In this document: positions 30,650-34,495 of the stretch, one piece after another
How the letters are laid out: each line of letters opens with the position of its first letter
Numbering within the stretch: the stretch's first letter is position 1
Source: a virus
Lineage: Duplodnaviria; Heunggongvirae; Uroviricota; Caudoviricetes
Strand: one strand, 5' to 3'
DNA length: 35,652 nucleotides
IMG/VR virus record: IMGVR_UViG_2850773344_000006
Position numbers and translations under genes: made by a program
Notes under the pieces: model-generated
The model's input: the letters and a program-made list of their open reading frames with translations, nothing else
The model's database searches: none
What the model was told of the DNA's origin: nothing

Positions 30650-31487
30650 GGTCTGTTACCCCCTGAAGCCTGGCGGGATCGCACTGTCCGGCAACGAGAC
30701 GGTGTTAACCTGTCGGAGCAACGTCTCAGGCCGAACACCTTTCGGCGCGAACAGACCCTGGTATTCATTGGCGATGCTGTGTCGAATCACCTGCTCAGGT
30801 GTAAAACCCTGCTGACGGAATTTTTCCAGTTCCCGTATCGCCCCGTTAGCGCCCAGCTCCGTTCGAATCGGTTTTCGCAATGCCTGCCTGAACTGGACCC
30901 ACTCATGCCAGAGTGTTTCTGGCAACCAGTCGGGCAGATCAACTGACAACGGGTCAAATTTTTTCTGGCGAACAGCCCCACCGATAACCAGAATTCCCTG
31001 CTCGGTGTGCCTTGCGATATCACTGCGCCGCAAGACACATATCCCGGTTTCAACAGCACCGATTTTGAGCAGTGATTTCTGTCGCGGAGAATTTCGGTCA
31101 AGCTCGATCCCACACCGGACACCGTTCCTGTCAGTCACGACGATATCAATCCGCCCTCCGCAACCGTCACCACGCTCTGGCACCGGATACTCACGACAGA
31201 CATCCAGGCCAGCAGCCTGCAACGCAACCACCGCAGAATTACAAAATTCCGCTGCAGTACCGCCAGATAATCTCCCCTCAAGCACTCCAGCCACAAAATC
31301 CCGAAACTCCCTTCCGGAAGGGAAGGGTTTGGGATGGGTTAGATCTGTTTTTAGATCTTTATCTGTATCTTTATTAGTTGCCTTTGTGTTGGCATCTAGA
31401 CTGGCCCCCTGAATCTCCAGACAACCAGTATCACTTATTTAAGTGATAGTCTTAATACTAGTTTTTAGACTAGTCATTGGAGAACAG

Positions 31488-31853
31488 ATTATTGATGTCT
31501 TAGGGCCGGAGAAACGCAGACGGCGTACCACACAGGAAAAGATCGCAATTGTTCAGCAGAGCTTTGAACCGGGGATGACGGTCTCCCTTGTTGCCCGGCA
31601 ACATGGTGTAGCAGCCAGCCAGTTATTTCTCTGGCGTAAGCAATACCAGGAAGGAAGTCTTACTGCTGTGGCCGCCGGAGAACAGGTTGTTCCTGCCTCT
31701 GAACTTGCTGCCGCCATGAAGCAGATTAAAGAACTCCAGCGCCTGCTCGGCAAGAAAACGATGGAAAATGAACTCCTCAAAGAAGCCGTTGAATATGGAC
31801 GGGCAAAAAAGTGGATAGCGCACGCGCCCTTATTGCCCAGGGATGGGGAGTAA
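31488..31853 (+). CDS. insC: IS2 InsC (orfA); the canonical start position reads ATT here
   Basis: Protein [25 protein letters not shown]...; the codon at 31488 is ATT where I recall ATG in reference IS2. Confidence 0.7.
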
Positions 31854-32716
31854 GCTTAGTCAGCCGTTGTCTCCGGGTGTCGCGTGCGCAGTTGCACGTC
31901 ATTCTCAGACGAACCGATGACTGGATGGATGGCCGCCGCAGTCGTCACACTGATGATACGGATGTGCATCTCCGTATACACCATGTTATCGGAGAGCTGC
32001 CCACGTATGGTTATCGTCGGGTATGGGCGCTGCTTCGCAGACAGGCAGAACTTGATGGTATGCCTGCGATCAATGCCAAACGTGTTTACCGGCTCATGCG
32101 CCAGAATGCGCTGTTGCTTGAGCGAAAACCTGCTGTACCGCCATCGAAACGGGCACATACAGGCAGAGTAGCCGTGAAAGAAAGCAATCAGCGATGGTGC
32201 TCTGACGGGTTCGAGTTCTGCTGTGATAACGGAGAGAGACTGCGTGTCACGTTCGCGCTGGACTGCTGTGATCGTGAGGCACTGCACTGGGCGGTGACTA
32301 CCGGCGGCTTCAACAGTGAAACAGTACAGGACGTCATGCTGGGAGCGGTGGAACGCCGCTTCGGCAACGATCTTCCGTCGTCTCCAGTGGAGTGGCTGAC
32401 GGATAATGGTTCATGCTACCGGGCTAATGAAACACGCCAGTTCGCCCGGATGTTGGGACTTGAACCGAAGAACACGGCGGTGCGGAGTCCGGAGAGTAAC
32501 GGAATAGCAGAGAGCTTCGTGAAAACGATAAAGCGTGACTACATCAGTATCATGCCCAAACCAGACGGGTTAACGGCAGCAAAGAACCTTGCAGAGGCGT
32601 TCGAGCATTATAACGAATGGCATCCGCATAGTGCGCTGGGTTATCGCTCGCCACGGGAATATCTGCGGCAGCGGGCTTGTAATGGGTTAAGTGATAACAG
32701 ATGTCTGGAAATATAG
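31811..32716 (+). CDS. insD: IS2 InsD (orfB, DDE transposase)
   Basis: 301-aa ORF overlapping insC in the -1 frame. Confidence 0.85.
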
Positions 32717-32954
32717 GGGCAAATCCAGCATCATGTTCGAACACCACTCCAACATCTGTTTGAACACCTGTTAAATTTCTCTCTTGTTTTGTTTGAACAT
32801 CTGCTTCCTTTCTGCTTCTTCTGGCCTGAACAGATGCTTTTCCTGCGGCTGATTTTTTGGTTAATTTTTCTCTGACAGATGCCAGATCTTCCTCAATCCG
32901 AAGATGCATCCATTCGTCGCCGTTATCACAAAAAAACTCCCGCAAGTGAAGTGG

Positions 32955-33794
32955 TCAACAAAAACTGGCCACCGAGTTAGAGTTTTTCCAGTATCGATTT
33001 TCCGATTCGTTTGGGGGTAACCCACCGTTATATTCGTGCGGTCTTAGTGCACTGTAATATCCAACGATATAGTCCGTTATGGCGTGAGCTGCCTCGCTGA
33101 AGCTTACGTAACCCACCACCGGCATCCATTCGTTCTTCAGACTCCTGAAGAAGCGTTCCATTGGGCTGTTATCCCAGCAGTTTCCGCGCCGGCTCATACT
33201 CTGTCTGATCTGGTATCGCCACAATAACTGCCGGAACTGCCTGCTCGTATAATGACTGCCCTGATCGCTGTGGAACATCACCCCGCCGGGCTTACCACGG
33301 GTTTCCCATGCCATTTCCAGCGCTTTCATGGTGAGCCTGCTGTCCGGCGAGAACGACATGGCCCAGCCCACTGGTTTTCTTGCGAACAGCTCGAGAACAA
33401 CGGCGAGGTACGCCCAGCGCTTACCCGTCCAGATATAGGTCACATCACCGCACCACACCTGATTTGGCTCGGTCACGGCGAACTGCCTTTCAAGGTAGTT
33501 AGGGATAGCAACATGTTCATGATCACCACGTTTATACCGGTGAGTCGGCTGCTGACAGCTGACCAGCCCCAGCTCTTTCATGAGCCTGCCAGCAAGCCAG
33601 CGTCCCATCTGGTAGCCTCTCCGGGTTGCCATTGTAGCGATGCTTCTTGCTCCGGCCGAACCGTGGCTGATGCCATGTAGCTCAAGTACCTGACTGCGTA
33701 ATACAGCCCGTCTGCCGTCTGGTTTTTCAGGACGGTTTTTCCAGTATCTGTAGCTGCTGCGATGAACCCCGAACACATGGCAGAGTGTGACCAC
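32955..33794 (-). CDS. IS911 orfB transposase
   Basis: 279 aa with DDE-type core. Confidence 0.85.
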
Positions 33795-33820
33795 AGGATA
33801 ATGCGCTCTGAGTTTCCCGA

Positions 33821-34123
33821 TTATCGAGAACTGTTCAGGGAGTCTGACATCAAGAGCGCGGTAGCCTTTTTTAATATTTCATTCTCCATTTCAATGCGTT
33901 GTAGCTTTTTCCTCAGCTTACGTATTTCGATTTGTTCTGGTGTTATCGGAGAGGCTTTTGGTGTTTTGCCCTGACGCTCATCACGCAGTTGTTTGACCCA
34001 TCTTGTCATTGTGGAAAGGCCAACATCCATAGCTTTGGCGGCATCTGCCACCGTGTATTTCTGGTCAACAACCAGTTGAGCGGATTCGCGTTTAAACTCT
34101 GCGCTAAAATTTCTTTTTTTCGT
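33821..34123 (-). CDS. IS911 orfA; the canonical start position reads ACG here
   Basis: (T)[41 protein letters not shown]...; the track ORF begins at an upstream GTG instead. Confidence 0.65.
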
Positions 34124-34495
34124 TGGAGCACCTGTGTTGTTCTGAGGTGAGCATATCACCTCTGTTCAGGTGGCCAAATTCAGTGTGCCACTTCAAAGGA
34201 TGGTTCAACATCAACCCATCGCTCGTTAGTCAGACGGGCAATTTTTGCCAACCTGTTTTTGGGTATTGGCTTTCCTGTTTGCCAGTAATTGAACATCAGC
34301 AACAAATACGCGCCGTGCTCCTCTGCTGACAAATGCATGGTGTCAGCCAGGTAATCAGCTATGTACAGTTGCATGTATGGTAATGCGGCCATAATTGCCC
34401 CGTATGATGCTACCCGGTTGCTTAGAATAAGTGAGGTAGCCTGAGTTTAACGGACACTCCTTCCTGAAATAGAATGGCATCAGAAGGAGCTAATA

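Follow-up and report, generated by a model that had tools for sequence, protein, structure and literature searches.

Start-codon variants of IS2 and IS911 in an interrupted ydaU gene of a decayed Shigella flexneri prophage

We analyzed a 35,652-nucleotide stretch of viral DNA (IMG/VR record IMGVR_UViG_2850773344_000006; hereafter the window), of which positions 19903-35652 are 100% identical to CP037923.1, Shigella flexneri 5a M90T. Our subject is a minus-strand gene of the ydaU family (DUF1376), 34392→30656, that is interrupted twice by insertion sequences (IS), namely IS911 and IS2, each of which carries a codon other than ATG at the start of its transposase frame. The ATT start of the IS2 copy marks a multi-copy IS2 sub-lineage restricted to Shigella, and the ACG start of the IS911 copy is an allele private to one clade.

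The interrupted ydaU gene and its two insertion elements

When both elements and one copy of each target duplication are deleted in silico, a 382-aa open frame is restored from 34392 to 30656, residues 5-87 of which match DUF1376 in Pfam (E=6.7e-25, 87.7 bits against a gathering cut-off of 30.1). The 1149-nt reconstruction aligns to two E. coli chromosomes in a single ungapped alignment, at 99.8% and 99.7% identity; the exact predicted empty IS911 site in ydaU is found at four other loci, and uninterrupted ydaU alleles carry GCATC as a single copy. The preliminary description of this DNA, made from the letters alone, had proposed that a ydaU-like gene split by IS911 (AAG duplication) and IS2 (GCATC duplication) reassembles perfectly, and the open frame, the E. 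coli matches, and the exact empty sites bear this out. The gene is left in three pieces:

34196..34392, minus strand: ydaU fragment 1, codons 1-65, with most of the DUF1376 domain; recognized from the junctions, the reconstruction, and the DUF1376 match. Its last three nucleotides are the AAG (plus strand) at 34196-34198, one copy of the IS911 duplication
32728..32946, minus strand: ydaU fragment 2 (middle), bounded by the second AAG (32944-32946) and the second GCATC (32728-32732)
30656..31396, minus strand: ydaU fragment 3 (C-terminal part), with the stop codon at 30656-30658 and the GCATC at 31392-31396

The IS2 element comprises the following features:

31397..32727, plus strand: IS2, 1331 bp, flanked by the GCATC duplication at 31392-31396 and 32728-32732
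31488-31853, plus strand: IS2 orfA, starting ATT
31488-31490, plus strand: start codon ATT of orfA and orfAB (ATG in the reference; IS position 94 G>T)
31805-31811, plus strand: A6G frameshift site
31811-32716, plus strand: IS2 orfB

Apart from its first codon, the IS2 copy looks complete. Its terminal repeats are intact, orfA and orfB overlap in -1 phase, the fused OrfAB frame is open (409 aa from the ATT, or 424 aa from an upstream GTG), and the GGAG Shine-Dalgarno sequence is kept 5 nt before the ATT. In the K-12 copy IS2A, insC1 starts at IS position 92, and the base at position 94 is G both there and in three further E. coli copies. Compared with IS2A (insC1/insD1), the window IS2 is 99.1% identical, with 12 differences, and shares the 1331-bp length, the terminal repeats, the 5-bp duplication, the orfA/orfB overlap, and the A6G site; compared with the best E. 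coli copies there are 8 differences. All differences fall at or before position 900, leaving the right end identical. IS2A starts ATG, whereas the window copy starts ATT and carries the Shigella haplotype 32G, 42-43TT, 274G, 606C, 697C, and 900G, together with M90T-specific changes that give R118Q and L161H in OrfAB. The ATT start is an allele difference, and the element remains IS2 (IS3 family, IS2 group).

One part of this haplotype alters a symmetrical sequence. At IS2 positions 42-43 (window 31438-31439), AA is replaced by TT at the center of the palindrome CACTTA-NN-TAAGTG, a sequence that covers the innermost part of the left terminal repeat and, directly before the promoter, the site at which OrfA is reported to act as a repressor. 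The result is the same as if the palindrome center had been inverted, and some E. coli copies show it as well.

The IS911 element comprises the following features:

32947..34195, minus strand: IS911, 1249 bp (not 1250), flanked by the AAG duplication at 32944-32946 and 34196-34198
34123→33821, minus strand: IS911 orfA, starting ACG
34121..34123, minus strand: start codon ACG of orfA and orfAB (ATG in the reference; IS position 74 T>C)
33872-33866, minus strand: A6G frameshift site
minus strand: orfB frame, open to 32955

The IS911 copy is equally well preserved: the orfAB frame is open, both ends are identical to those of E. coli reference copies (with terminal repeats starting TGAAGTGG), and an AGGTG Shine-Dalgarno sequence is kept 5 nt before the ACG. 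It is 99.5% identical to annotated E. coli and Shigella copies ('IS3-like element IS911 family transposase') and has the same 3-bp duplication, A6G site, open orfAB, and intact ends; the annotated element starts ATG, whereas the 1249-bp window copy starts ACG. In three annotated E. coli copies of equal length, position 74 is T and the coding sequence begins at position 73. A 1250-bp form also exists, in which an extra G at position 719 (window ~33477) breaks orfB; it occurs in both ACG copies of S. flexneri 8401, in S. flexneri SFBU1023, and in ECMA0423, and the M90T copy in the window is without it. The preliminary description missed the 1249-bp length, as it missed the IS600 at 34431 described below.

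The same description had given ATT for IS2 insC and ACG for IS911 orfA against ATG in reference copies, and every reference copy checked does read ATG, with G at IS2 position 94 and T at IS911 position 74. In 5,426 complete E. coli genomes, a 61-mer centered on the IS2 variant had no perfect match among 13,300 IS2 places, nor did a 61-mer centered on the IS911 variant among 3,502 IS911 places.

Order of insertion and distribution of the start alleles

The locus was located in other genomes with the ydaV-like DnaC/IstB ATPase as an anchor, a protein that is present residue for residue in five S. flexneri chromosomes. Two neighboring features define the comparison:

29903..30649, minus strand: DnaC/IstB-like ATPase, ydaV-like, 7 nt downstream of ydaU
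34431..35652, plus strand: IS600, from its left end to the window edge, starting 38 nt upstream of the ydaU ATG (junction 34430/34431)

Five assemblies, namely 8401 (CP000266.1), two of M90T, JANXIZ01, and UGYR01, have an identical IS600/IS911/IS2 arrangement, and all of them read ATT and ACG. CP189683.1 and CP097831.1 share the IS600 and IS2 junctions of these assemblies and yet have an exact empty IS911 site, so IS911 is the youngest event. The ydaU::IS911 insertion is limited to the M90T/8401 group of assemblies, and the IS600 truncation and the IS2 insertion are common to other S. flexneri chromosomes. The idea of an old pair of insertions consequently does not hold, as the IS911 insertion came last and IS2 sits in strains without IS911. 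The same double insertion is absent from the 5,426 complete E. coli genomes, and searches for exact matches to the ydaU fragment proteins (N-terminal, 70 aa; C-terminal, 191 aa) returned this lineage alone.

When compared with intact E. coli relatives, IS600 replaces all prophage DNA upstream of ydaU; the ydaT, cro-like, and cI-like genes are gone, and so is the start codon assigned in those relatives by PGAP, the annotation pipeline of NCBI, an ATG located 51 nt before the ydaU ATG. On its other side, IS600 borders a LysR-type chromosomal gene that is truncated, implying a deletion associated with IS600. The loss of the expression context of ydaU was independent of the IS2 and IS911 insertions.

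The ATT start of IS2 is far from confined to this locus. An exact 136-aa IS2 open reading frame (ORF), called in older annotations from an upstream in-frame GTG and carrying Ile in place of the canonical Met, lies on 57 contigs and is indexed in 35 blocks of the collection, with records from the virulence plasmid pCP301, from S. flexneri 2a strains 301 and 2457T, and from others. Sites of ATT-start IS2 include four in CP026810.1, two in S. dysenteriae Sd197 (CP000034.1), another in 8401, and one on pCP301, to which a pattern scan adds three in S. flexneri SFBU1023 and two in 'E. coli' ECMA0423; such copies occur in 5 of the 163 Shigella plasmid records. Together they show at least 12 distinct left junctions, and eight copies, the window copy included, have their own perfect 5-bp duplication. 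They share a haplotype that sets them apart from K-12 (32G, 42-43TT, 274G, 606C, 900G, and mostly 697C). S. flexneri also contains ATG copies whose OrfAB is otherwise identical, and the IS2 copies present in loci fetched without reference to IS2 comprised one ATT and four ATG. We conclude that ATT-start IS2 is a Shigella-restricted, multi-copy sub-lineage. Since ATT elements occupy many sites with duplications of their own, ATT is not a private lesion of the window copy, which most probably inherited it from its donor or gained it by gene conversion rather than by decay in place.

Among the ATT copies, two lack matching duplications, and one flank of each is ATCCC, as could result if IS2 copies had recombined or an inversion had taken place between them. 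An ATT-start IS2 adjoins IS911 in the same relative orientation at an unrelated locus in both S. flexneri SFBU1023 and ECMA0423, and on a 245-kb plasmid of E. coli VL40 an IS2 and an IS911 are nearly directly abutted.

These observations agree in part with published work. Hawkey et al. 2020 (PMC7373316) describe, in their passages on IS2, a subpopulation shared by Shigella species, distinct from that of E. coli, and possibly moved by pINV. The ATT copies are likewise confined to Shigella chromosomes and pINV and are common to S. flexneri and S. dysenteriae; unlike that subpopulation as a whole, ATT marks just a part of it, as ATG copies with the same OrfAB coexist. The IS2 and IS911 passages of Hawkey et al. 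2020 (PMC7373316) and of Lewis et al. 2012 (PMC3299598) mention neither start allele, and the multi-copy ATT-start sub-lineage and the clade-private ACG allele are apparently previously undescribed detail.

The ACG start of IS911 has a much narrower distribution. A second ACG copy adjoins cheZ/flhB in 8401 and in M90T (CP000266.1 ~1.969 Mb), where the element is flanked by GTA and GAT and so lacks a matching target duplication. When the orthologous cheZ-side element was read in 19 loci, 16 had ATG, and ACG was found in 8401, JANXIZ01, and M90T only; in UGYR01, the cheZ-side copy has ATG while the ydaU copy has ACG. None of 1,317 plasmid places carries ACG, and the ACG motif, searched as a 34-mer and then as a 24-mer, had no hit in GTDB species representatives or JGI metagenomes; across these three collections we found no ACG copy with a new target duplication. 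The preliminary description held that each element bears its own start-codon lesion, which is viable for the clade-private ACG of IS911 and does not apply to the shared ATT of IS2. The cheZ-side element sits beside an IS600 and a truncated nucleotidyltransferase-like ORF, a context that suggests an IS-mediated rearrangement of the flagellar region.

The presence of ACG at both the ydaU and the cheZ-side loci, the latter being mostly ATG, points to gene conversion between IS911 copies. ACG is a clade-private allele. It most likely originated in the ydaU copy or together with it, from where ectopic gene conversion carried it to the older cheZ-side element, with no new insertions. Exchange is also suggested within single insertions. 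The same IS911 insertion is mosaic between M90T, 8401, and UGYR01, with a patch at 244-282 and changes at 560-806 (window 33952-33914 and 33636-33390), and the same IS2 insertion differs between these strains at positions 193, 443, 572, and 774 (window 31589, 31839, 31968, and 32170). These clustered differences exceed what point mutation would give among close relatives and look like either ectopic gene conversion between IS copies or repeat-polishing error. At the ydaU::IS2 site, the orthologous element starts ATT in CP189683.1 and ATG in CP097831.1; as the start codon of one and the same insertion can differ between strains, ATT against ATG for IS2 and ACG against ATG for IS911, IS sequence is a poor clock for the age of an insertion.

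Explanations for the altered start codons

In IS3-family elements, OrfA and the OrfAB transposase share one start (PMC3299598), so an altered codon would lower both together. In E. coli reporter genes, AUU initiates at ~1-2% of AUG, and the remaining codon class, including ACG, at 0.1-1% of AUG; N-terminal peptides confirmed initiation at ACG, and AUU is the sole non-canonical start confirmed in E. coli genes (bioRxiv 10.1101/063800). IS911 OrfB uses AUU (Polard 1991 and Prere 2011, cited in PMC4066793). The window IS2 resembles this AUU-initiated OrfB and E. coli infC and pcnB in having AUU as the first codon behind a normal Shine-Dalgarno sequence; in those three, AUU initiation and its regulatory use are experimentally shown, whereas for the window IS2 the codon and the GGAG are known from sequence and their use is what we infer. 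The ACG of the window IS911 has no confirmed natural precedent in E. coli (bioRxiv 10.1101/063800).

As the Shine-Dalgarno sequences are unchanged, initiation at ATT and ACG presumably persists. By analogy with the reporters, both copies probably still initiate at the altered codon and make little protein; they would be weak transposase producers rather than dead elements and could be mobilized in trans. The reduced transposase expression proposed in the preliminary description is plausible to this extent.

IS911 transposase acts preferentially in cis. This preference would leave the ACG copy nearly immobile on its own, fitting a spread by conversion only. The ATT sub-lineage clearly did spread, whether through its own weak transposase, through supply in trans from ATG copies, or partly by conversion.

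Taking this evidence together, we consider it likely that the locus records three separate IS events on the ydaU gene of a decayed prophage, with start alleles that are shared or exchanged between copies, as part of ordinary Shigella genome decay. The anatomy, the distribution of the alleles, and the relative order of the insertions are shown by the sequences compared here; the expression level, the direction of gene conversion, and the lack of any selective role are inferred. The course of events is as follows:

(i) An IS600-bounded truncation removed the whole regulatory left arm of the prophage.

(ii) IS2 inserted with its GCATC duplication, before or after the IS600 truncation, and the ATT allele was most probably brought by a donor IS2 of the Shigella-restricted sub-lineage or introduced by gene conversion.

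(iii) IS911 inserted later, with its AAG duplication, in the M90T/8401 clade; ACG most likely arose in or with this copy and then passed by ectopic gene conversion to the older cheZ-side element.

(iv) With Shine-Dalgarno spacing normal, the altered codons would initiate at ~1-2% (AUU) and <=1% (ACG) of AUG, lowering OrfA and OrfAB together, and the intact ends, frameshift sites, and open frames would allow mobilization in trans.

Several points weigh against this account. The direction of conversion from ydaU to cheZ rests on parsimony and five assemblies without a strain phylogeny, and some of the strain-to-strain IS differences could be repeat-polishing artefacts. Shigella coverage was a sample of genomes and not a set of whole-chromosome scans. 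Private duplications prove independent IS2 insertions, not that ATT was present at the time of insertion; with the present data, transposition of ATT elements is not separable from gene conversion into resident IS2 copies. Finally, the initiation figures of 1-2% and <=1% belong to E. coli reporter genes and not to IS2 or IS911 mRNAs.

A different view, close to that of the preliminary description, is that both non-ATG codons are independent decay mutations in long-resident copies, which they immobilized, and that the pair was kept because it silences prophage replication. In keeping with such decay, neither allele occurs in the 5,426 E. coli genomes, and a naive estimate gives a chance of ~1.6e-4 that both starts are hit, assuming ~6 private substitutions in 1331 bp and ~5 in 1249 bp; the coincidence argument is invalid, however, as ATT was inherited. 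For IS2 the model is refuted by ATT copies at 12 or more junctions, with eight copies, the window copy among them, having their own duplications, and by the orthologous IS2 that reads ATG in CP097831.1. As to IS911, the insertion is recent rather than old, and ACG sits in a second copy too, although decay in place remains viable for this element alone, given that ACG is clade-private and that the searches yielded no ACG copy flanked by a new target duplication. The left arm and the ydaU upstream region were already lost at the IS600 junction, and nothing suggests selection for silencing of replication. Thus, the start-codon observations of the preliminary description stand and a reduced expression is plausible, whereas 'old', 'pair', 'immobilized' (for IS2), and 'silencing' are contradicted or lack support, and we regard the model as a whole as improbable.

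Similarly unlikely, in our judgment, is an adaptive role, whereby non-AUG starts would have been selected to lower the transposase load in an IS-saturated genome or to tie transposase synthesis to IF3 and growth state, as in infC and pcnB. The ATT sub-lineage does occupy many sites in at least two Shigella species and on the virulence plasmid, and AUU has the precedents named above, as the sole confirmed non-canonical start in E. coli (bioRxiv 10.1101/063800) and as the start of IS911 OrfB (PMC4066793). Against this, the genomes concerned also hold ATG copies that encode the same protein, ATT reaches only 5/163 Shigella plasmid records, and drift in small Shigella populations together with gene conversion accounts for the pattern without selection.

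It is less probable still that the true starts are in-frame GTG codons farther upstream, at IS2 position 47 (window 31443) and IS911 position 37 (window 34159), such that expression is kept with an N-terminal extension. Both extensions are open in frame, and public annotations and gene callers use them, giving fusion products of 424 aa (IS2) and 401 aa (IS911). Neither GTG is preceded by a purine-rich Shine-Dalgarno sequence, whereas GGAG and AGGTG are still correctly spaced from ATT and ACG; the IS2 GTG overlaps the TGAT of the extended -10 promoter (positions 48-51; PMC3299598), which places it upstream of the native transcript start, and every ATG copy has this open extension too, without any report of its use. 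For want of a Shine-Dalgarno sequence, and with the IS2 GTG lying inside the promoter, we regard the 424-aa and 401-aa GTG-start proteins as annotation artefacts.

Finally, assembly or polishing artefacts in repeated DNA are a negligible explanation of the start variants, even though other positions in these IS copies differ between close-strain assemblies to a degree that exceeds point mutation. Five assemblies from different technologies (8401, two M90T, JANXIZ01, and UGYR01) agree on ATT and ACG, a concordance that rules such an error out, and ATT recurs in dozens of unrelated records.

Prophage setting and significance

The order ydaU, DnaC/IstB-like ATPase, DUF977 protein corresponds to the position of a lambdoid replication module, and in intact relatives cro-like and ydaT genes lie upstream of ydaU. 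The ydaU-ydaV-ydaW module of the Rac prophage has the same plan: it encodes first a protein with a DUF1376 N-terminus, then a DnaC-like ATPase, and then a DUF977 protein. In Rac-type phages, proteins that carry the annotation replication protein O or primosomal protein I share 92-95% identity with the N- and C-terminal thirds of the window YdaU; they lack a ~145-aa middle insert that the reconstruction contains at residues ~137-280 (minus strand, window ~31390-30820 and 32733-32800). This insert matched nothing among phage proteins or in Pfam, and a Pfam search at E values up to 10 with the C-terminal 227 residues, a part that takes in the insert, returned nothing. The product is predicted to be a YdaU-family (lambda O-position) replication protein, with a putative function taken from phage-record annotation ('DNA replication protein O', 'primosomal protein I'). 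A 70-aa N-terminal ydaU ORF is annotated as DUF1376 in UGYR01, and PGAP splits even the uninterrupted E. coli allele into two pseudogene pieces at both E. coli loci.

The window as a whole is a Rac-like lambdoid prophage that has decayed and survives as a cargo island with ipaH and sitABCD. An ipaH-type NEL E3 ligase gene lies at 2941-4596 and the sitABCD transporter genes at 10506-13955 of the prophage remnant, along with two paralogous DUF4376 tail-fibre-like ORFs (4776-5399 and 14156-14779), an antiterminator Q homologue, an integrase-like gene, and tail-fibre remnants. Further mobile elements include three IS1 copies, an IS66-family element, and additional IS600 copies. At 8355-8415 there is also a solo 61-bp stretch, oriented like the full IS911 copy, whose sequence is that of IS positions 1-61 at the left end of the element; it is a remnant of another IS911.

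The locus in itself matters little, as IS-disrupted genes are routine in defective Shigella prophages and ydaU was already cut off from its promoter region. What it does show is that start-codon alleles of IS elements are exchanged between resident copies. Public annotation hides both alleles by choosing the upstream GTG and reporting 'transposases' of 424 and 401 aa, and counts of 'intact' Shigella IS copies therefore take probable weak producers as normal ones.

A further possibility, which we hold to be doubtful though worth stating, is an AUU-attenuated transposition, sensitive to IF3 and growth state, in an IS2 sub-lineage that has still colonized a dozen or more sites in two species and on a virulence plasmid. 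If the ATT sub-lineage transposes on its own AUU-initiated transposase, it would offer a natural model for translational attenuation of transposition. Transposase synthesis would then be strongly attenuated and IF3-sensitive, and the ACG IS911 would be a second, younger example that spreads by gene conversion. Such self-restrained IS elements could help explain how Shigella tolerates its IS load.

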